Numbered from the stretch's first letter, positions 7,340 through 56,370 are shown. The stretch: DNA of 64,000 nt from Rickettsiales bacterium (GCA_046154225.1 JBJXEM010000006.1:46124-110123); one strand, 5' to 3'. The notes: generated by a model not told the origin, from the sequence alone. Numbers and translations are program-made.

Positions 7340-9231
7340 GCGGCGGCCTGCTCGGTTTCGGGTTGGTATTCTGCTACAATGCGCTTGAGTAGTTGGCGCA
7401 TGGCTTGGGCGTCACCCTCGCGCGCGCGCTGCAGCAATTCGCGCAGGGCAGCGAGGATTTCAACGCGCGCTAAGGTGCGGGCACGGGCCAGGCGGATCGA
7501 CTGGTGCGAAGTGGGCATTAAATTTTCCGCGTCGTGGAACAATTCCTCGAACAGTTTTTCGCCGGGGCGCAGGCCGGTGAAGGTGATGGGGATGTCGTCG
7601 TAAGGTTTCAGCCCGGCGAGGCGAATCATCTGGCAGGCCAGCTCTTCGATACGCACGGGGTTACCCATGTCGAGCACGTAAATCGGTGCGCGGTCGGCCT
7701 CGCGGCTGCCCAGTACCGCGGCCTGCAACACCAGCTGCACGGCCTCGGAAATGGTCATGAAATAACGCACCATGTCTTTGTGGGTGACGGTAACCGGGCC
7801 GCCGCGCGCGATTTGTTTTTGAAACAGCGGCACCACCGAACCCGCCGAATTTAGCACGTTGCCGAAACGGACGGTGATGAAGTGGGTTTTTGCGCCGTCC
7901 TGCGCCAGCATCTGGCCGTAAATTTCGGCGGCGCGTTTGCTGGCACCCATCACGCTCGTAGGGTTCACCGCCTTGTCGGTCGAGATTTGTACCATGGCGG
8001 CGACACCGTGCGCCACGCAGGCATCGGCCAGTTGCTTACTGCCCAGCACGTTGGTGAGCACCGCCTGATCGGGGTTCGATTCCGACAGCGGCACATGTTT
8101 GATGGCAGCGGCATGGAATACGATTTCGGGGCGGAACATGGTGAAGGCGCGGCCCAGCTGGTCGATGTCGCGCACATCGCCCAACACCGCGTATCGGCGA
8201 AGGGTGGGCACCAGTTCACCCAGCTCGTGGTCGATCTGGTAGAGATTATATTCCGACTGTTCGTAAAGCAGCATTTCCGATGGCTGCAGGGCTGCGACTT
8301 GACGCACCAGTTCGCTACCGATGGAACCGCCGGCACCGGTAATCAATACGCGTCGCCCGGTCACAAATTCACGCATGGCGGGGCGGTCGAGCTCGGCTTG
8401 CGGGCGACCTAAAATATCTTCCACCGCCACCGGGCGAATGTCGTGCAGCCGGTCGCCGCTTTTCAGTTCGCCCATGTTTGGCAGGCGTGAAAGCGGCAGT
8501 TGGTGCGCGTGGGCGACGGCCAGCAGTGCGTTGAACTGGGTGCGCGGATAGTCGCTGTCGGCGATGATGATGCGACGCGGGCTGCGGCCTTTGCGTGCCA
8601 GCTTGCGCAAAATGTAATCGACTTCGCCGCTATGGCCGTAAATGCGCACATGGTGGATTTCGCGGCCGTGCTGGCGCGGGTCGTCGTCGATGAGGCCGAC
8701 GGCTGCGTAGGGGAAATCGGCGTTGCGCTCCGACTCGCGCAGGAACAGTTCGGCTTGCGCCGTGGCCCCCACCACCAGCACCGGCGTGCGGTTTGAGGGC
8801 CGCCCCATCAGGCGCGCCATCAGCGCCCGGTCATGCGCGAGGCGCCATAGCACGCGCCCGGCAGTCAGGCACAGCATCAGGGTCATCCAGTGAATGTAAG
8901 GCACCGAGCGCGGCAGGTTCTCAAGCCGGGTGAAGCCGAACATGCCGAGGTAGAATAGCAGTAGTGCCACGGTACCCGCGCGGGCGATAATCATCAGGTC
9001 CGACAGCGTGCAGTAGCGCCAGACATGGCGGTAGGTGCGGTAATACACCAGCACCACCAGCATCACGAGTGCGAAAGTGGCCGCCCCCTCGATACGGTAG
9101 CCTTGCGTATGCACCAGCGTGCGGTCGCCCAGGCGCAGGTAAAGCGCCAGCAGGAAACTCAGCGATGCCATCGCCATGTCGTGCAACAGGGCGAGCATAT
9201 TGCCAGAGGGGCGTTTAAAGGGCAGGCGCAT
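7336..9231 (-). CDS. polysaccharide biosynthesis protein, CapD/WbpM/PglF-type membrane-anchored NDP-sugar dehydratase/epimerase
   Basis: Four N-terminal TM helices followed by a Rossmann domain (VLITGAGGSIGSEL) and a short-chain dehydrogenase-like C-terminal part. Length 631 aa is typical of this family. Confidence 0.8.
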   Translation of the reverse strand: MRLPFKRPSGNMLALLHDMAMASLSFLLALYLRLGDRTLVHTQGYRIEGAATFALVMLVVLVYYRTYRHVWRYCTLSDLMIIARAGTVALLLFYLGMFGFTRLENLPRSVPYIHWMTLMLCLTAGRVLWRLAHDRALMARLMGRPSNRTPVLVVGATAQAELFLRESERNADFPYAAVGLIDDDPRQHGREIHHVRIYGHSGEVDYILRKLARKGRSPRRIIIADSDYPRTQFNALLAVAHAHQLPLSRLPNMGELKSGDRLHDIRPVAVEDILGRPQAELDRPAMREFVTGRRVLITGAGGSIGSELVRQVAALQPSEMLLYEQSEYNLYQIDHELGELVPTLRRYAVLGDVRDIDQLGRAFTMFRPEIVFHAAAIKHVPLSESNPDQAVLTNVLGSKQLADACVAHGVAAMVQISTDKAVNPTSVMGASKRAAEIYGQMLAQDGAKTHFITVRFGNVLNSAGSVVPLFQKQIARGGPVTVTHKDMVRYFMTISEAVQLVLQAAVLGSREADRAPIYVLDMGNPVRIEELACQMIRLAGLKPYDDIPITFTGLRPGEKLFEELFHDAENLMPTSHQSIRLARARTLARVEILAALRELLQRAREGDAQAMRQLLKRIVAEYQPETEQAAA

Positions 9232-9937
9232 CAGAACTCACGACGGGTTTGCGGACGAGGCCACCTAGCACAACCACGAGATAAAAGCCAATAGAGAGAC
9301 CCGCGCCCACAAACGCATGATGCGCGAGTGCCACCAGTATCAGCCAGCCGATGAGAAAGCCGTAGGGTTGGCGACACACGAGCCCGAGCGTTCCCGGGCC
9401 GGATTGCGCAAGTAGCACACCCACCAGCGGTGCTAGCAGCAGCAGCGCATCGAGCGCTAGGAAAGCAGGTGTTTCACCAAAGAGCGAACTTGCGGCCAAT
9501 GGAAAAAGCATGAGCGTGGCGGCCAGACTACCCCCGCGCGGTGTGTTGGGAAGGCCTGTGGCCAAAAATGTGGTGAGCAGCCACATGGCCGCCGCACCGA
9601 CATAGATGAGCCAAAGCGGGAGGCCCGAAATAGCGGGCAGATGCAGGGTGGTAAGGCCCAGCAGTACCGCGACGAGCGGCGCGGCGTATTGTATATAGGC
9701 AGGCAGCGGGTGTCGCATGGAATAACCGCCAACCAACACCAGCAGCAGCGAGGCGACCGCCAGCGTGGAAGGCATTGCTACAATAATGAGAAATCCGATG
9801 GCGCTGAGCACTGCAAACAGTCCCGTGGGAATGGCCGGCGCGCCAAGCATGGCCTCCAACCTGCGGCTGATACGCAGTGCAGCCCATGCGGCCAGTGCTG
9901 CCGAAAAAGCCAGAATGACAATATAGCTTGCGACCAT
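9215..9937 (-). CDS. polytopic membrane protein, unknown function
   Basis: 240-aa ORF that is hydrophobic almost throughout (7-8 predicted TM helices). It overlaps the downstream CapD-like gene by 17 nt. I recognise no catalytic motif. Confidence 0.5.
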   Translation of the reverse strand: MVASYIVILAFSAALAAWAALRISRRLEAMLGAPAIPTGLFAVLSAIGFLIIVAMPSTLAVASLLLVLVGGYSMRHPLPAYIQYAAPLVAVLLGLTTLHLPAISGLPLWLIYVGAAAMWLLTTFLATGLPNTPRGGSLAATLMLFPLAASSLFGETPAFLALDALLLLAPLVGVLLAQSGPGTLGLVCRQPYGFLIGWLILVALAHHAFVGAGLSIGFYLVVVLGGLVRKPVVSSDAPAL

Positions 9938-9991
9938 AGGGACAGACTAGCGGGCCCGGCGTGGATTGTCATTAGCGACGGTGAGGCATGC

Positions 9992-36784: not shown

Positions 36785-37260
36785 AAAGTGTTTCAAGTGC
36801 CACCCGGGAGGCGACCGCCGACCCGCGAAAAATCATCCTACGCTAAAGCTACGGACGACGCTCCTTCGCCTAAGGCCGCCTTCGACCGGCGTAAGCCGTC
36901 CGAAGCCGGAGGCGAAGGGCGGTGGGGGGATTCTGTTGCCCAGCTCCCCCCGGGCTGCGTTTACGAGCTAGAGCTCGTCAAGCCACACTAAGCGGCGAGA
37001 CGGGCTGCTACGACGTTGTTGTCGTTAGCTGCAACGAGTGCTACGTTGTCGTTGGCACTTGAAAAGTGATCCGATTATGGGAGATCACCCCAAGCAAAAG
37101 CAGCGCCTTTATTGCGGTTGTCGATGCTAATTCACCCCCACAAAGCCACCGCGTTGCGGTGGCTTTGTGGAGGTGCCGGGCTCTGCCCCCGGGTCCAATC
37201 CGACTATTCCACGATACGTTTATTGCTATAGCCACTTGCGTGACAGTTCTAAATATAAGG
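36785..37260 (-). ncRNA. ssrA: tmRNA (ssrA), circularly permuted two-piece gene: acceptor piece - spacer hairpin - coding piece
   Basis: On the minus strand, ...GGAC-CCGGG-GGCAGAG-CCCGG-CACCUCC-A ends at 37168. A 27-nt hairpin follows at 37141-37167. GGGGGUGAAUUAGCAUCGAC starts at 37139. GGGGGUG pairs with CACCUCC and gives a G3:U pair. The tag frame 37056-36988 reads ANDNVALVAANDNNVVAARLAA*. The outer ends are approximate. Confidence 0.8.
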
Positions 37261-37382
37261 CAAAACGGCCGCGGGTTCAAGCCGCAACTGCGGTCAAAAA
37301 TCGACAATCCGACACGCAACCTTCACGCAACCGTCATCAAACTGTCACATCTGTTTGGTAGGGTGAAGGCTAGGAGAAACCC

Positions 37383-47347: not shown

Positions 47348-47384
47348 GCGGCGTTCCTCTGCTCTATGAGTGGCAGGAGATTAT

Positions 47385-49319
47385 ATGGGTACTGAACCAT
47401 CAACAGAAATGCCAAGCGGCGAAGATTACGATGCCGTGCAACAATCGCTGCAAAAAGCTTTCAAAGTGGCCGATGAAAGCTTTGCTAAGCATTTTGCCGA
47501 CTGGTGGTCGGCGATGGGTACGGATGCGATGAATAAACAATTAAGTGGCGAGATCGATATTCCGGACTCGCGCTTTTCGCGCCGTCGTCTGGTCAACGCC
47601 CTCGGTGAAAGCCGTAAGCGACTGGAAGCGCGAATGCAAAAAGTCAGCAATCAGAATGCTTTTATCGAAGAATGCTACGATTCGATTGAAGCGGAAATGG
47701 AAGAGCTGTTTTTTGTCACGAATAACCGTGCCGAAGCCAAAATGGTGCAGGATTATTTTTTACGCTTCCTGGCAGCAGCCTCGGGTGAGCTCGAATTATC
47801 CGGCCACATGGAAAAAGAAGTGGCGGAGTATTGTCAGGCATTCAAGGAATATTACGATATTGGTTTTGAGTCGTACGACGACCTGCGTGAGATTGTGCAT
47901 GAAGTAAGCGGCGGCACCACTCACAGCATCGTTGCGCTGGCGATGTCTCAGCACGCATCGGATGAATCTTCCAAACGTGGGATCAGTAAACTGCCCAAGC
48001 TCTCGGAGCAGTCGCAACCCGCCCGGGATATGATCAAAGCCATGACCGTTCCTGCCTATAATGCGCTGCTGGCGAGCGAATATGGGCTCAGCTACGAACC
48101 TAACCAAGTATTTCACTACAGCACTCCTTGGATTTGTTATCAGGCGCGTGAACTTTCAGGGGCACAGTATGAACTTAATCTGCCGCGCCGTTTCAGCCGA
48201 TCGCAGCAGCAAACCAATGCGATTGAAGGGGTGAAACTCGAGCGTGAATTGATGCGTCATGTCAGCGAATTGATTGCCAAAGAAGGAAACATATTCGGGC
48301 TGATTGATGCGTCCGTCATGTTTAATCATAAACGGGCCGAAGCCAATCAGGTACCGGAAGGGTTTCCGGACATGCTGCACGAAGCCTGTGCCCGGGCCGA
48401 ACATATTGCGGCCGAGCAATTCAAAGAAATCTACAACAGTCATATTCAACGATGGGCCAGCCTGCCCGCCGCGAAAAGCCGCGAGCTTGGCAAAAACGCC
48501 TGGCCGCTGCTTGACACCTGGGACATGGATAACGGCGTCGCCAGAGATATCGGCCACTACCTGACGGAGGCCGTGATCAATGCCTCGTCGCCGTTGCGCG
48601 TGGCGCGTCGCGCCGAACAAATAGTGGATGAAATGGCCGCCGATGTCATGCTCGGCTGCGTCAGCCCGGTACAATTTCGCTATGCCGAACAATATCTGAA
48701 AACCCTGCGGCGCGAACTGGGGTCGCAACTGCACGATGTTGGTCAGTTCCAGGCAGAAGCGTTTGCGCCGTTACGTCAGTTAGAAGAAAAATGCCGTTAT
48801 GCCTATGAGAGTGCAGAAGTGCTGCGCGAATGGGTACTTGACAGTACCGACCATAAATTCGACCGTCTGATGCAGGAACAATATTTGAAGCATGCGTTGA
48901 AAACCGGGCAGGCAATCCACCAGCTTAACCCGAATGAATGGGCCGACACCATCATGCCGAAAACGGCAAAATCATATCGGAAGTTGCTCAAAAATTCTGG
49001 GTTTTACCAGCGCGGCAAGGACCATGTGCTGCTACCCGTCATTGTGCGGCATGCGCGTCGGGTGGTCGATGCTGAGCTGGGGGCGGCACCTACATCTGAG
49101 GCAGGGGCTTCGAATGAGGAAATTACCGATTTTGAAACACGCTACTGGGAGCGCACGCGGGCATTAGTACAGGAAGCGCTCTCTGCCATGCCAGACCGTG
49201 ATGCGCTGACGGGAAACAGTCATCGTCGCTATCCTTTTAGTGCCGAGGATATGCATGAAGCCATCACCGACCTTGATGGCAAAGCAGCGCTGTTGACGCA
49301 TCGCGGTACGCGTCATTAA
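47385..49319 (+). CDS. hypothetical protein, 644 aa, AT-richer ORFan
   Basis: ATG 47385 is preceded by AGGAG. Acidic, predicted helical, no signal peptide and no motif I recognise. Confidence 0.55.
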   Translation: MGTEPSTEMPSGEDYDAVQQSLQKAFKVADESFAKHFADWWSAMGTDAMNKQLSGEIDIPDSRFSRRRLVNALGESRKRLEARMQKVSNQNAFIEECYDSIEAEMEELFFVTNNRAEAKMVQDYFLRFLAAASGELELSGHMEKEVAEYCQAFKEYYDIGFESYDDLREIVHEVSGGTTHSIVALAMSQHASDESSKRGISKLPKLSEQSQPARDMIKAMTVPAYNALLASEYGLSYEPNQVFHYSTPWICYQARELSGAQYELNLPRRFSRSQQQTNAIEGVKLERELMRHVSELIAKEGNIFGLIDASVMFNHKRAEANQVPEGFPDMLHEACARAEHIAAEQFKEIYNSHIQRWASLPAAKSRELGKNAWPLLDTWDMDNGVARDIGHYLTEAVINASSPLRVARRAEQIVDEMAADVMLGCVSPVQFRYAEQYLKTLRRELGSQLHDVGQFQAEAFAPLRQLEEKCRYAYESAEVLREWVLDSTDHKFDRLMQEQYLKHALKTGQAIHQLNPNEWADTIMPKTAKSYRKLLKNSGFYQRGKDHVLLPVIVRHARRVVDAELGAAPTSEAGASNEEITDFETRYWERTRALVQEALSAMPDRDALTGNSHRRYPFSAEDMHEAITDLDGKAALLTHRGTRH

Positions 49320-49325
49320 ACCCCT

Positions 49326-49370
49326 CTAAACGATTTTAGCTCTTGATTGCGTTGTTTAGATAAACTAAAC
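49326..49370. promoter_or_regulatory. pair of CTAAA(C)/(G)TTTAG palindromes upstream of the HTH-ilvI reading frame (candidate operator)
   Basis: CTAAACGATTTTAG (49326-49339) and GTTTAGATAAACTAAAC (49354-49370) share the half-site CTAAAC. They end 8 nt before ATG 49378. Confidence 0.45.
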
Positions 49371-49377
49371 ATAGCAC

Positions 49378-51348
49378 ATGGATTTTAAAGAGCGCATTAT
49401 TACGAAATTCGGCGGCACCGGGGCGGTGGCGGAGATTTGTGACGTCACGCCCGGCGCGGTTTCGCAGTGGGACATGATTCCGGCGCGGCACCAGCGCACG
49501 CTGCTGGCCGAAGCGCGGGCGCGCAATATTCGCCTGAGCGCTGAGGATTTTATCGGCGCTGCGCCCGGCGCCCAACGCAAGACCGCACCCGCAAAAACGG
49601 CGACCGAGCGCGAGTTGACCGGCGCAGAAATCGTCATCCAGTCGATGCTCGATAACGGCACGGAAGTGGTGTTCGGCTACCCCGGTGGCGCGGTGCTGCC
49701 GGTGTATGACGCGCTGTTCAAGCAAAACAAACTGCGCCATATTCTGGTGCGTCATGAGCAGGGCGCAGGCCACGCGGCGGAAGGCTATGCGCGCTCGACC
49801 GGCAAAGTAGGCGTGCTGATGGTAACCAGCGGCCCGGGCGCGACCAATACCGTCACCGCGCTGTGCGACGCGTTGATGGATTCGATTCCGCTGGTATGCA
49901 TCACGGGGCAGGTGCCCACGCATTTAATCGGCACCGACGCGTTTCAGGAAGCCGACATTGTGGGCATCACCCGCAGCGCCACCAAGCATAATTACTTGGT
50001 AAAAGACGTGAACGATCTGGGCCGCATTCTGCACGAAGCGTTTCATGTGGCCGTGACCGGCCGCCCGGGCCCGGTGCTGGTCGATATCCCCAAAGACATC
50101 ATGAACGCGACGGGTATTTATCGTGGCGCCGAGGGCATTCGTCGCCAGAGTTACAACCCCGTGAAAAAGCCCGATGCGCGTATGGTCGAGCGCGCGGTCG
50201 AGCTGATGGCGCGCGCCAAGCGGCCGTTGTTTTACGTCGGCGGCGGGGTGGTGAATGCGGGCGACGCGGCCTGCGCAGGCCTCATTAAACTCGCGCACAT
50301 GACTAAATTTCCGGTGACGACGACCCTCATGGGCCTCGGCGCGTTCCCGGGTGACGACCCGCAGTTTCTGGGTATGCCCGGCATGCACGGCTCGCTGGAA
50401 GCCAACATGTGCATGAGCGAGTGCGACGTGATGATCAATATCGGCGCGCGATTCGACGACCGAGTGACCGGACGGCTCGACGCGTTCAGCGTGAAAAGCA
50501 AAAAAATCCATGTCGATATCGACGCCAGTTCCATCAATAAAATCGTACCGGTCGATATTGCCATCAGCGGCGACGCGGGCGAAGTGATCGCCATGATGAT
50601 TGCGCTGTGGCGCAAGAAAAAACTGGAGCCGCAACGCGACGCGCTTGTCAAATGGAACAAGCAGATAGCAGGCTGGCGGGCGCGCGATTCGTTTGGCTAC
50701 AAACAGGTGGGCAAGCATATTAAACCGCAGCATGCGCTGCGCCGGCTGAATCATTTTCTCAAAGCCAAAGATTTTTTCGTGACGACCGATGTGGGCCAGC
50801 ACCAGATGTGGGCGGCGCAGCACATCCTGTACAACAAGCCGAACCGGTGGATGACGTCGGGCGGGCTTGGCACCATGGGTTATGGGTTCCCGGCCGCTAT
50901 CGGCGTGCAAATTGCGCACCCGAAAGCGCCCGTGGTGTGCGTTACGGGCGAGTCGAGCTTTATGATGAATATTCAGGAAATGAGCACCGCTGTGCAATAT
51001 CGCCTGCCGGTGAAAATCATGATTCTGAACAACCAGTATATGGGCATGGTGCGCCAGTGGCAGGAGATGTTTTATTCCAGCCGCTATTCCGAATCCTACA
51101 TGGACTCGCTGCCGGATTTCGTGAAATGCGCCGAGAGTTTCGGCATGAAAGGCATTCGCTGCAAAGACCCGGCGAAACTCGACGAATGCATCAAAGAAAT
51201 GCTCGCACATCCGGGGCCGGTGCTGTTCGATTGCTGGGTCGACCCTAAGGAAAATGTGTATCCCATGATTCCGGCCGGTGCCGCGCACCATGAACTGGTG
51301 CTGGGCCCCGAAGAGCCGCAGCGCGTGCTGGATAAAAACCGGGTGTAG
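49378..51348 (+). CDS. ilvI: acetolactate synthase (AHAS) large subunit, read in one frame with an N-terminal Cro/YdaS-like HTH segment
   Basis: From [34 protein letters not shown] onward this is a canonical ThDP-dependent AHAS ([15 protein letters not shown]...). The preceding 79 codons ([38 protein letters not shown]...) have no stop. An alternative AHAS-only start is TTG 49615. Confidence 0.85.
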
Positions 51349-51358
51349 GAGGCAGATT

Positions 51359-51865
51359 ATGACCACCGATGAAATGGAGCGCATGCCGCACAAACGGCCG
51401 GATGATGAATTGGCTAAAATTGTGGCAGAATTCGCACCGCGCACCCGCGAGTTCGTGGACTATGCCGATACGCTGGGTGAAGACGTGTTCGCAGACGACG
51501 AAGTGAAAACACGATTCCATGACTACCGTACCCAGTACGAGGCCGCGCTCGGCGAGCATTTCGACCGCTATGTCGCGCAGCATGAGCTTCCCGAGTCGGC
51601 CACGGAACAGGACAAGTTCAACGCACGTGAGTCATTCGCCGAGCAGAGCGCAGAGTATAACGAAAATGAAGCAGTCACCGAGCACATAGCCGCTAAAACC
51701 CAGGGTGACAGTGACGCTAAGCGTCACGCCCACCAGATGCGGCTTGAAACGCATTTTGGCACCTTGCGTAATGACTACCTTCGGGACAAGGCGGTGGCCG
51801 AGCGGCAGAACGAATCATGGGTGGCGTCCAGCACCAGACGCACACCGAGAGAGCAGGGTATGTAA
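51359..51865 (+). CDS. hypothetical acidic protein, 168 aa, in the position normally taken by ilvH
   Basis: ATG 51359 is preceded by a strong TAGGAGG, 10 nt after the ilvI stop. Asp/Glu-rich helical sequence. The 51278 start in the track overlaps ilvI and has no ribosome-binding site. Confidence 0.55.
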   Translation: MTTDEMERMPHKRPDDELAKIVAEFAPRTREFVDYADTLGEDVFADDEVKTRFHDYRTQYEAALGEHFDRYVAQHELPESATEQDKFNARESFAEQSAEYNENEAVTEHIAAKTQGDSDAKRHAHQMRLETHFGTLRNDYLRDKAVAERQNESWVASSTRRTPREQGM

Positions 51866-52015: not shown

Positions 52016-52699
52016 TTAAAGATTCCACGAAGCGCCGATGCCGAGCACTGGTCTTTCGAGGCTGCTGTTTTGAATCATGACGGGGTGGAAATGCACCTGG
52101 TATTGGTCGTAATCGCTGATCGGCCCACGCGGGGCGCTCCAAAACTGGATTTCGCCGATGACGAAGCCCGAGATGCCGGTCACCAGCGCGTCGTTCGTGC
52201 GGCCGATTTGTGAGATGACAATGCCCGATACAGCATTGAACCCAGCATTCGCCAAATGCGGCACGAGTTCATAAGGTTCGTGCGCGCGCTCGGCACTGTC
52301 GCGAAGTAACGACTCTTTGCGGTTGAGGCATTGCGCCGGACTGTCGAGGTCGCTGCATACCGTGTCGGCGTTGAAAGCGGGCAGGGGACGGAAAATCACA
52401 TCGCCGACACCGACTAGGCTTTGCACGGCGTTCACAATGTTGCCGTTGCGTTTTTTGGCGTCATTCTCGCCCACAGACAGCGCGGTGGTGTAAATGAGGG
52501 CGGCGCCGTTAAAGCTACCCCAGCCATATTGCCAGTAATCGGCCTGCTTTTTTTGTTCGTTTAGCAGACGGGTGGTTTCGAAATAACGCGTGTCGAATTG
52601 TGGGCCGTTCACGCCTACTTTGGCCGAAGGTTCGGCCTGCGCTGAAACGGCGAAGCTGATGACAAGCGCCATGTGTAAAACGAGCTGGCGTAGATGCAT
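52016..52699 (-). CDS. hypothetical secreted protein, 227 aa
   Basis: ATG 52699 is preceded by GGAGA. Signal peptide MHLRQLVLHMALVISFAVSAQA. No recognisable family. Confidence 0.5.
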   Translation of the reverse strand: MHLRQLVLHMALVISFAVSAQAEPSAKVGVNGPQFDTRYFETTRLLNEQKKQADYWQYGWGSFNGAALIYTTALSVGENDAKKRNGNIVNAVQSLVGVGDVIFRPLPAFNADTVCSDLDSPAQCLNRKESLLRDSAERAHEPYELVPHLANAGFNAVSGIVISQIGRTNDALVTGISGFVIGEIQFWSAPRGPISDYDQYQVHFHPVMIQNSSLERPVLGIGASWNL

Positions 52700-52871
52700 A
52701 CGGTATCTCCAAAGTTGTCCTGATCCGAGCGATCGATGCAGGCAAGGGCATAAAATTTCGAGGTAGAAAATACGACAATTCACATTTTTGTCCAGTTTTT
52801 ACGTACAGTCAGCCCCTAAATGCCGCAGTATTGGGCTTGTAACGGGCCCGCAGCTGCGTTAAAACGCGCGC

Positions 52872-53420
52872 ATGAGCCAAGAATCCCTCGATATCGTCTA
52901 TGACATCCCCGATGACGTGGTCGTCGAAGACCGCCATATTCTGGCGGTGCTGGTCGATGACGAATTCGGCGTGCTGAACCGTGTGGTGGGGCTATTTTCG
53001 GCACGCGGCTATAACATTGAGTCGCTCACCGTGGCCGAAGTGGATGCGAAGAAAAACTATTCGCGCATCACTGTCGTCACCCGCGGGTCGGCTTCTAAAA
53101 TCAAGCACATCATCGCCCTGCTCGAGCGCATGGTGCCGGTGCATAAGGTGCATGATTTAAGCGTCGAAGGCCCGTTCATCGAGCGCGAGCTGGCGCTGGT
53201 GAAAGTGGCCGGCACCGGCGACGAACGCGTGGAAGCCCTGCGCATCGCCGATATTTTTCGCGCTAAACCTGTAGACACCACTATCGAGAGTTTCGTGTTC
53301 GAAATCACCGGCACTACGGAAAAAGTCGACACCTTCATCGGCCTGATGAAACCTCTGGGTTTGGCAGAAGTATGCCGCACCGGGGTGGCCAGCGTGGCGC
53401 GCGGGCCGAAGGGCATATAG
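52872..53420 (+). CDS. ilvH: acetolactate synthase small (regulatory) subunit
   Basis: ACT domain HILAVLVDDEFGVLNRVVGLFSARGYNIESLTV plus the ALS_ss_C region. 182 aa. Confidence 0.88.
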   Translation: MSQESLDIVYDIPDDVVVEDRHILAVLVDDEFGVLNRVVGLFSARGYNIESLTVAEVDAKKNYSRITVVTRGSASKIKHIIALLERMVPVHKVHDLSVEGPFIERELALVKVAGTGDERVEALRIADIFRAKPVDTTIESFVFEITGTTEKVDTFIGLMKPLGLAEVCRTGVASVARGPKGI

Positions 53421-53462: not shown

Positions 53463-54674
53463 ATGACAGCAGCGACGATGGCAATGCCCAGGGGTGGCAA
53501 TATTTTCACGGCGCGGCAGTGGCGCGGGCGGCCTTATCTTATCAGCCCCGTGGCCGATTTTCTGATGGTGGGCGGGCTGGCGCTGATTCTCATTGTGCTG
53601 ATGGCTTTTTGGGTGCCGCGCGGCGTGATTAACGACGTGACGGCGCTGTCATTTTCACCGCTACTGGCGGCGCTGCTAACCTACCATATTTTCGCCATCA
53701 ATTACCCGCATTTCGCCTATTCTTACCAGATTGCCTACCGGCGCATGCATTATATTCGCGCGGCAAGCGGCCTGCGGCGCATAATCCGCTGGCGCTATGC
53801 GTTTGCATTGGTGATTTTCCCCATTCTGTATGTGGCCTATTGCGCTTATGCGCTGGCGTTAAAGGAACATTCCGGACTAGTGCTGCTGGGGCTGCTCATC
53901 AACCTCATGTATTTCACCGTCGGCTGGCATTACTGCAAACAGAGCTTTGGTATTTTGTTGGTGCTGTCGGCCTTGAAGGGCCTGTATTTTACGTCGGGCG
54001 AGCGGCGTGTACTGTTAGTGCATGCAGTGCTGGCCTGGCTGATGGCGTGGCTGGGCGGGAATATCTACCTGTTTGGCGACCAGTTTTGGGGGTTGCCCTA
54101 CCACTCGGCAGGCCTTAGCCGCTATGTGGCCGACTGGCAGCTCGAGACGTTCCACACATTGGGGGTGAACCTGACCTTCATGCTTGGGGTGCTGTGCGCT
54201 GTGATGCTAGTCCGCAGCGCCTATCGGGCCAGAAAATTCCCGTCGCTTACCGGGGCGCTCGGCTATTACATGATGTACCCGCTGATGCTGGTCTCGAGCG
54301 TGTTTCACCCCCTGTGGCTGTGGGTTTTACCCGCCATGCATTCGCTGCAATATTTGCTGTTCGTGTTCGCCTACCGGCGCGGCGAAGTGGTGCACATGCT
54401 GCCTGAACAAAACCACCCAAGCCCCGCGCCCAGCCTTCGCCTGCACGCCATCGCCGGTTTTGCAGCGCTTGGCGTGCTTATCGGCGCCATCCAGTTCAGC
54501 TGGCTGCCAAATTTGCTCGACGCGCTGGTCAACCCGGACAACAAACTCCACGTGCCCCTGTTGTTCATGGCGCTGTGCCAATTATTCGTGAATATTCATC
54601 ACTACTTCATCGACAACGTCATCTGGCGGCGCGAAAACCCCGAAGTGGGGCGCTATTTGATGGGGCGGGGCTAA
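53463..54674 (+). CDS. polytopic membrane protein with His-rich motifs, unknown function (403 aa)
   Basis: About 10 hydrophobic helices. Recurrent His motifs WHYCKQSFG, PAMHSLQY and VNIHHYFIDNVIWR suggest a membrane metalloenzyme. I cannot name the family. Confidence 0.55.
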   Translation: MTAATMAMPRGGNIFTARQWRGRPYLISPVADFLMVGGLALILIVLMAFWVPRGVINDVTALSFSPLLAALLTYHIFAINYPHFAYSYQIAYRRMHYIRAASGLRRIIRWRYAFALVIFPILYVAYCAYALALKEHSGLVLLGLLINLMYFTVGWHYCKQSFGILLVLSALKGLYFTSGERRVLLVHAVLAWLMAWLGGNIYLFGDQFWGLPYHSAGLSRYVADWQLETFHTLGVNLTFMLGVLCAVMLVRSAYRARKFPSLTGALGYYMMYPLMLVSSVFHPLWLWVLPAMHSLQYLLFVFAYRRGEVVHMLPEQNHPSPAPSLRLHAIAGFAALGVLIGAIQFSWLPNLLDALVNPDNKLHVPLLFMALCQLFVNIHHYFIDNVIWRRENPEVGRYLMGRG

Positions 54675-54756: not shown

Positions 54757-55890
<1,134 letters not shown>

Positions 55891-55893
55891 ATT

Positions 55894-56370
55894 ATGTGTC
55901 GTTATGCATCTTATTTTTTTCTAATTATTGTTCTCATATTTCCGACCCTAGCATCTGCGTTAAGTTGCGGTCCAGATCTGGAGGCAACGTTTAATGAGGC
56001 ATTTAACGGCGCAGATATTATAGCCGTTGTCCAGCCTTTGGAGTCTTTCGATTCGGCAGTTGGCACTCTTACTGAAAACTGTGCAGGTTGTGCGTCCACC
56101 GCGAAGCTACAATTTCAGGTGCAGCGTTCTTATTTAGGTGTGCCTGCAGGCAAGAAAATAATGGTGCAAACCCCTTTCTATGAAACGCGTAAAGTTTACC
56201 AAGCGAAAGAGGGAGAATATTTTTTGGTCGCTAATTCCTACAATGATTCTTACATATTAGCACCTTGTGGCGGGCATATGTTATTTTCTATCGATACGCA
56301 GGATGTTAAAATGCTTGAGTTAGGAATGCGGGTGCAAAATCGTCTGGCGGCCGCAAAAACAAAACCCTAA
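55894..56370 (+). CDS. hypothetical secreted Cys-containing protein, 158 aa, strongly AT-richer ORFan
   Basis: Signal peptide MCRYASYFFLIIVLIFPTLASALSC. Six Cys residues. Clearly lower GC than ilvC, which ends 4 nt upstream. Confidence 0.5.
   Translation: MCRYASYFFLIIVLIFPTLASALSCGPDLEATFNEAFNGADIIAVVQPLESFDSAVGTLTENCAGCASTAKLQFQVQRSYLGVPAGKKIMVQTPFYETRKVYQAKEGEYFLVANSYNDSYILAPCGGHMLFSIDTQDVKMLELGMRVQNRLAAAKTKP

Follow-up and report, generated by a model that had tools for sequence, protein, structure and literature searches.

What a phage-type helix-turn-helix (HTH) segment is doing at the front of a core biosynthetic enzyme was the question raised by a locus from a Rickettsiales bacterium (GCA_046154225.1 JBJXEM010000006.1:46124-110123), a stretch of 64,000 nucleotides that is referred to here as the window and from whose first letter all of its positions are counted. 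An open reading frame (ORF) on the plus strand (49378..51348, ATG start, 656 amino acids) runs from a Cro-type HTH into ilvI, the gene for the large catalytic subunit of acetohydroxyacid synthase (AHAS), the enzyme that opens branched-chain amino-acid synthesis. No stop interrupts the passage from the initial 79 codons to the AHAS core, and an operator-like palindrome lies immediately in front of it. The reading favoured here, to which a probability of roughly 60% was given on the comparative sequence evidence, is that a domesticated phage promoter-operator-cro module makes this AHAS its own repressor, a trigger enzyme in the manner of PutA.

An earlier reading of the window (the original prediction) had described a Cro/YdaS-like HTH continuing without a stop into the AHAS large subunit, and the ORF was found to be as described. 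A search of the N-terminal segment with profile hidden Markov models returned an HTH family, Pfam PF14549 (P22_Cro), which matched residues 4-39 at 37.6 bits (33.6 bits with the full protein) and so exceeded its gathering score of 30.2, while PF15943 (YdaS_toxin) fell short of its cutoff of 30 with 21.4 bits; the Cro part of the proposed assignment stood and the YdaS part did not. The NCBIfam model NF046037, named 'carph-isopro', scored right at its threshold with the domain (38.4 bits, cutoff 38) and gave 21-47 bits with the stand-alone phage-type relatives. The name, absent from the literature searched, might denote fusions to carbamoyl-phosphate or isopropylmalate synthases; the LeuA protein of the window is without the domain. 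The Cro-type all-alpha HTH domain occupies residues 1-58 (49378..49551, plus strand), including a recognition helix at about residues 25-30 (PGAVSQ; 49450-49467, plus strand), and the expected Pro/Ala/Lys linker was confirmed as a basic, flexible Pro/Ala/Lys/Arg stretch of about 21 residues without a stop codon (residues 59-79; 49552..49614, plus strand). A six-frame search of the window turned up no further copy of the domain, and no repressor gene was found near the fused ORF in the window, where the domain is not a free phage protein beside a repressor and is instead fused to AHAS between an ORF of no known family (ORFan) and ilvH.

Residues 80-656 together with the stop codon (49615..51348, plus strand) form a complete AHAS large subunit. 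The AHAS models span residues 73-648, TIGR00118 was matched at 776.3 bits (cutoff 538.35), the three thiamine diphosphate (ThDP)-enzyme domains TPP_enzyme_N, M and C were all found, the catalytic Glu lies in the AHAS context RHEQG, and the core shares 84-89% identity with those of relatives. In place of the textbook GDG...NN, the ThDP/Mg motif has the form GESSF...NN (approximately 50945-51040, residues ~523-554). A GE[AS]S form occurred in every one of the 119 relatives in which the motif could be detected, whether or not they carry the fusion, and by this comparison it is a trait of the clade and not a sign of inactivation.

Predicted structures placed the N-terminal domain in the same family. 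An AlphaFold2 model of the HTH domain alone had a predicted local distance difference test score (pLDDT) of 92.3 and five helices (residues 3-10, 14-20, 25-30, 36-48 and 55-58). The closest sequence matches in the PDB were P22 Cro (1RZS) and N15 Cro (2HIN), and the top nine Foldseek matches to the PDB were all Cro proteins of Xfaso 1, N15 or P22 (template modelling scores of at most 0.72, probability 0.97-1.0). The domain is predicted by these models to fold as a five-helix all-alpha Cro HTH. In a full-length model the HTH had pLDDT values of 80-91 and the AHAS core was confident, while residues 60-74 fell below 50; as modelled, the HTH stands apart from the core as a domain of its own, joined by a flexible tether.

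Relatives were drawn from the best 120 AHAS clusters of a full-length protein search, clustered at 90% identity. The fusion was present in 49 of these 120 clusters, comprising the window protein (P0001) and 48 more with the same P22_Cro and TPP-enzyme architecture, at lengths of 649-685 amino acids, 69-90% identity and from many independent assemblies of uncultured alphaproteobacteria. PF14549 was precomputed in the databases for 49 relatives. P0001, which comes from a metagenome-assembled genome (MAG) labelled 'Rickettsiales bacterium', and its relatives are nevertheless annotated as an ordinary AHAS large subunit, an annotation that overlooks the Cro domain. A word-indexed protein search with the 79-residue segment alone gave no match, the relatives having come from the full-length query and an exhaustive HMMER search, and a scan of genome contigs was dominated by ordinary AHAS genes and returned only two fused loci.

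Among the fused proteins the first ~58 residues were well conserved with 19 invariant positions, including V23, T24, G26, A27, V28, S29, Q30 and W31, concentrated in the HTH and its recognition helix. These were followed by 20-50 basic residues that varied in length and could not be aligned among the fused clusters. Selection and reading frame were analysed in the 12 fused genes with DNA sequence. In the HTH block the ratio of non-synonymous to synonymous polymorphism (pN/pS) was 0.29 and the median ratio of the corresponding substitution rates (dN/dS) was 0.16, with third codon positions variable at 53 of 55 codons, first positions at 28 and second positions at 23. By these measures the HTH is under purifying selection. 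Linkers measured 63-75 nt and were a multiple of three in all 12 genes, the other two frames being mostly closed by stops, and no stop or frameshift separated HTH and core in the 49 clusters. The codon at the canonical AHAS start was TTG in the window, ATG in four relatives and CTN in seven of the 12, and in two loci (L082 and L087) the sole in-frame start after the HTH lay ten codons inside the conserved core. A conserved internal start codon was not found across the 12 fused loci, nor was a conserved Shine-Dalgarno (SD) sequence within the linker. Since CTN is not a start codon, the enzyme must be translated from the ATG of the HTH in those genes, and we infer from this pattern of sequence evolution that enzyme and HTH must be made as one polypeptide.

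The sequence in front of this ATG was arranged as a promoter overlapped by a palindrome. A -35-like hexamer, CTTGAT (49342..49347, plus strand; five of six positions to CTTGAC), and a -10-like hexamer, CTAAAC (49365..49370, plus strand; four of six to CTATAT), were identified, with the ATG at 49378 located 7 nt past the latter. These were assigned as a promoter because of their conservation and because of the rhizobial (alphaproteobacterial) sigma-70 consensus, CTTGAC-N17-CTATAT (PMC2873474). CTTGnn occurred exactly 17 nt before CTAAA(C/T) in 13 of 15 fused loci and in three of three phage loci, and the TTG of the -35-like hexamer was invariant in the promoter alignment. The main operator-like palindrome, GTTTAG-ATAAA-CTAAAC (GTTTAGATAAACTAAAC, core TTTAG-N5-CTAAA; 49354..49370), covers the promoter spacer and the -10, its right half-site being the -10-like hexamer itself, and in the window it extends to 12-nt arms (49348-49359 and 49365-49376; 83% complementarity). 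The exact TTTAG-N5-CTAAA was located directly before the HTH start codon in all 15 fused loci and in none of the 79 non-fused AHAS loci scanned, and was also absent from four more that were checked by eye; among the loci compared, the candidate operator is strictly associated with the fusion. In the 64 kb the main palindrome had one match against 0.7-0.9 expected when one to two mismatches were allowed, which is not above chance, and its significance therefore rests on the conservation among relatives. The pattern TTTAG.T.A.CTA was invariant across 16 aligned sequences including two phage cro promoters. RNA polymerase places no sequence requirement on the promoter spacer, and the invariance of the left half-site TTTAG within it was therefore the key sequence argument for protein binding.

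Two palindromes sharing the half-site CTAAAC had originally been predicted, and both were present at their positions with the downstream one conserved, but the upstream one (CTAAAC-GAT-TTTAG, CTAAACGATTTTAG; 49326..49339) was kept only as a half-site. Its CTAAAC was found 28-29 nt before the main palindrome in 11 of the 15 fused loci and at 30 nt in L004, and the TTTAG partner that makes it palindromic was present only in the window, L001, L085 and L089. This CTAAAC could serve the operator as a weak or auxiliary half-site. In nine fused and three phage loci the ATG followed the end of the -10 by 7-11 nt, with no functional SD (an AAGGA upstream of the ATG in L084 overlaps its -10), which suggests a leaderless mRNA in many members. 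Six fused loci had longer leaders of 20-55 nt, with an SD-like motif in three of them (L004, L082 and L085). Five non-fused close relatives had an SD-led ATG opening a protein that begins MTE(A/P)RELTGAE, and showed no trace of the module. In L084 a second exact operator (CTAAAC-N14-TTTAGTTTATCTAAAC) was located at 9794-9827 of that locus, between a prepilin-like gene (8933..9709, minus strand) and ilvC (start at 9949). Such an extra site upstream of ilvC was absent in the window, L001, L086 and L087, and thus occurred in one of the five fused loci with ilvC in view. A wider operator regulon was considered and was unsupported, as the window held no second site even with one mismatch allowed and the extra ilvC site was confined to L084.

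The same arrangement was found in phages. The exhaustive HMMER search with the 79 residues returned 82 proteins and, once fusion fragments and a handful of low-complexity hits to the linker were set aside, almost all were stand-alone proteins of 60-100 amino acids. No fusion of the domain to another enzyme was seen among the 82, in a library of one representative per 50%-identity cluster that may hide fusions to conserved enzymes. The closest stand-alone homologues (L092, L094 and L147) were 54-61% identical members of the P22_Cro family of 71-75 amino acids, encoded divergently from an HTH_3 cI-like repressor and beside VRR-NUC, T5orf172 and GapR-like genes. Judged by this gene context, they sit at the classic cro position of a phage immunity region. 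Upstream they had CTTGCA, N17 and CTAAAT, the palindrome TTTAG-N5-CTAAA, and a gap of 7-8 nt between the -10 and the ATG, and more distant phage relatives carried three TTTAG-N4-CTAAA operators between repressor and cro. As the half-site is the same in these distant relatives, the recognition sequence appears to be shared across the Cro family. Cultured alphaproteobacterial phages held only versions of ~35% identity (the phiLM21 'putative Cro-like protein' and phiKM1), and plasmid records gave no match. By homology and layout, both the domain and its promoter/operator are of phage origin. The C-terminal tails of the free Cro proteins were basic and similar in composition to the fusion linkers, which suggests that a Cro tail became the tether.

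Additional sites were observed in the phage loci. L092 (3237-3251), L094 (1887-1901) and L147 (1466-1480) each contained a second exact TTTAG-N5-CTAAA, which as seen from the cro promoter lies beyond the repressor gene, at a distance of 0.75-1.5 kb. These positions are reminiscent of an OL-type operator, and that of L092 falls within a further intergenic region between divergent genes. The same TTTAG/CTAAA half-sites occurred at two spacings in different subgroups, N4 in L149, L150, L152, L156 and L180 and N5 in L092, L094, L147 and L109. The N4 spacing was paired with C-termini of the form '...GIPK..L.FL..RP..F' and the N5 spacing with the IPA(R/K)HQxTLL type of L092, L094 and L147, plus L109 with a different C-terminus. 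The subgroups offer a natural pair for how dimer geometry sets operator spacing.

The sequence of events proposed is that a piece of a temperate-phage immunity region, consisting of early promoter, operator and cro, would have been captured ahead of ilvI and fused to it in frame. The product would be a single chain with a Cro-type HTH, a disordered basic tether of 20-35 residues and a complete AHAS catalytic subunit, with translation beginning at the cro ATG on an mRNA that in many members would have little or no leader. The catalytic subunits of AHAS form obligate dimers, and the dimer body would for this reason hold two tethered HTH domains together. The paired domains would bind the 17-bp palindrome TTTAG-N5-CTAAA and, as this site spans the spacer and the -10 of the promoter of the fused gene itself, AHAS would act as a transcriptional repressor of ilvI and, where the two are co-transcribed, of ilvH. 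A further and rather doubtful elaboration is that the AHAS holoenzyme acts as a transcriptional sensor of branched-chain amino acids, in which Val, Leu or Ile on IlvH, or the occupancy of IlvI by substrate or cofactor, would alter how the Cro domains are presented. Were this so, feedback on activity and on ilv transcription would pass through one protein derived from a domesticated phage switch.

Several points weigh against autorepression by AHAS. DNA binding, repression and the N-terminus of the protein were inferred from sequence alone, as were the leaderless start and any coupling to amino acids (valine) or IlvH, and autorepression of a simple kind would not in itself provide a sensor of amino-acid supply. 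Part of the conservation of the right half-site, which is at the same time the -10, could reflect promoter function alone. The match to the -35 is poor in L004 and L093, and an E. coli-type promoter scan made no call at the promoter of the fused gene. The fused state is also patchy, as a neighbour-joining tree of the AHAS cores, constructed without support values, contained one large fused clade, within which at least six non-fused groups were nested, and two fused outliers. The module is therefore dispensable. The HTH and core distances co-varied (Mantel r 0.41, 0 of 2000 permutations), and these patterns fit an old acquisition that would have been followed in some lines by loss or recombinational replacement. 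The module may alternatively have been transferred by recombination, given a tree without support values.

The alternatives to AHAS as its own repressor differ in what they retain of it. The Cro domain could be functional with its main target elsewhere, either other genes in trans or the operators of related infecting phages, and under the latter a housekeeping gene would express a factor for immunity or exclusion. The same operator type does occur in phages from the same kinds of sample (L092, L094 and L147) and the second exact palindrome of L084 lies between a pilin-like gene and ilvC, but that extra site was seen in just one of the five fused loci whose sequence includes ilvC, no additional site within one mismatch exists in the 64 kb of the window, and the one that is always retained lies at the gene's own promoter; this explanation is considered unlikely. 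Distinctly unlikely is a simple promoter capture, where the phage promoter and leaderless cro start would express ilvI and the HTH would serve as an initiation or solubility tag with no DNA binding. The joint inheritance of promoter, short or absent leader and ATG from the phage layout would be expected from such a capture, as would a right half-site conserved in its role as the -10. A tag of this kind is difficult to reconcile with the dN/dS of 0.16 and with 19 invariant residues focused on the HTH and recognition helix, or with a spacer half-site TTTAG that is invariant in 16 sequences, and the loci with long SD-led leaders have retained both domain and operator.

The original prediction had left open whether a fusion protein is made or AHAS starts internally at TTG 49615 behind a phage-type regulator gene that had lost its stop, and the comparative data favoured the former. 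Two products, or in a variant an upstream segment that is only untranslated leader, would be compatible with the TTG at the canonical position in the window and the ATG of four relatives. Against them stand CTN in seven of 12 genes, the next start of L082 and L087 ten codons inside the core, a dN/dS of ~0.16 with a codon-position pattern typical of coding sequence, the lack of a conserved SD in the linker, and linkers that stay in frame without stop or frameshift in the 49 clusters, which together make this very improbable. Relatives with a separate small stop-ended ORF before ilvI, or with frame-breaking changes in a leader, had been anticipated under that outcome and none was found, the relatives carrying the fusion or lacking the whole module and the linkers all being multiples of three. 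It is extremely improbable that the palindromes represent an RNA hairpin or the terminator of the upstream gene (47370..49319). The region does fold at -12 kcal/mol (z = -2.0), but the stem is AU-rich, and the spacing of the palindrome to the -35 and the ATG is constant irrespective of which gene lies upstream. The terminator/hairpin reading was rejected on the absence of a T-tract, a negative terminator scan and this independence of placement.

Comparison with known systems would place AHAS carrying its own repressor domain among the trigger enzymes, with an unusually legible phage origin. The all-alpha phage Cro proteins (P22 1RZS, N15 2HIN/6ON0 and Xfaso 1 3BD1; PF14549) belong to the same family with a five-helix fold, and a short palindromic operator overlapping an early promoter is shared with them, its binding by the fusion being predicted. 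Phage Cro is a free protein of ~65-75 amino acids that dimerises via its own C-terminus, whereas the fusion domain is joined to a 577-residue enzyme on a bacterial chromosome with no adjacent repressor gene and would derive its dimerisation from the enzyme. PutA of Enterobacteria carries an N-terminal ribbon-helix-helix domain on a proline dehydrogenase/pyrroline-5-carboxylate dehydrogenase and represses the put operon. The likeness consists of a metabolic enzyme that carries a DNA-binding domain at its N-terminus, an operator in its own promoter and autorepression, the last of which is predicted for AHAS. PutA uses a ribbon-helix-helix in a catabolic pathway and the fused AHAS a Cro-type HTH in a biosynthetic one, the PutA switch (membrane association on proline oxidation) has been demonstrated whereas the fused AHAS is known from sequence, and unlike PutA the AHAS module is recognisably phage-derived including its promoter. 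BirA (biotin ligase/repressor) and NadR likewise combine catalysis and repression of their own pathway in one polypeptide, yet these are ancient, widespread, co-repressor-controlled winged-helix or HTH proteins, in contrast to the lineage-restricted and patchy fused AHAS. Ordinary IlvI, the large subunit of AHAS III (TIGR00118/PRK09107), has the same core and the same miaA-ilvI-ilvH-ilvC-leuA context, which is usual in alphaproteobacteria, and differs from the fused AHAS by the lack of its 79 extra N-terminal residues. The original prediction knew of no AHAS catalytic subunit with a DNA-binding domain, and a literature search likewise found neither an HTH-AHAS fusion nor an AHAS trigger enzyme.

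Few enzymes also act as transcription factors, and most of those that do are ancient. Here the origin of a putative enzyme-regulator is readable from sequence as a phage promoter, operator and cro joined to a core biosynthetic gene, an example of phage regulatory DNA that would have been domesticated for host metabolism and maintained by selection in ~50 lineages of about species rank. The clean absence of the module from close relatives provides a natural with/without comparison for the benefit of enzyme self-repression, and at ~300 bp the module would be a compact, portable autoregulatory part for synthetic biology.

The surrounding gene order was largely kept among relatives and consisted of degP, serB on the opposite strand, miaA, a variable segment, ilvI, a second variable segment, ilvH, ilvC and leuA. 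In the window two ORFs without known family separate ilvI from ilvH, the AHAS small regulatory subunit (52872..53420, plus strand; ALS_ss_C and ACT_AHAS_ss domains), while in L001 and L090 ilvH directly follows the fused ilvI. The gene upstream of the fusion varied between miaA and assorted ORFans, with a phage repressor in the phage loci. ORFs without a Pfam or NCBIfam family were located in the window at 47370-49319, 51278-51865, 52016-52783 (minus strand), 53463-54674 and 55894-56370 and separate nearly every conserved gene pair along miaA-ilvI-ilvH-ilvC-leuA. The corresponding slots of relatives were occupied by different ORFans (355-726 amino acids between miaA and ilvI) or were empty, and in L185 ilvI-ilvH-ilvC-leuA was contiguous. 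For the 649-amino-acid ORFan product, the counterpart in L081 was only 27% identical. The ilv neighbourhood looks like an insertion hotspot for unknown genes.

Other features of the window and its relatives were observed. A two-piece permuted alphaproteobacterial transfer-messenger RNA (tmRNA; Rfam RF01849, 196.7 bits) was identified at 36921-37284 on the minus strand and, together with a GC content of 58.6% and the full ilv/leu pathway, suggests that the 'Rickettsiales' label of the MAG is only nominal. Four non-fused AHAS proteins of sister lineages (P0090, P0077, P0087 and P0071) had long Lys/Ala/Thr/Pro-rich N-terminal extensions, for example MAKAATKKTVTKKVATKKTATKKAAK, that are reminiscent of histone-H1-like basic tails. 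The linkers of the fusion are basic as well. IlvC of the window (54820-55890; KARI_N and KARI_C) had an extra N-terminal segment of ~16-28 residues, which was also present in L086, L087 and L090 and not in L183 and L185. The motif ttcaatt..aaaa.c.gCTAAAA.gct.gc was conserved before ilvC in five fused loci.

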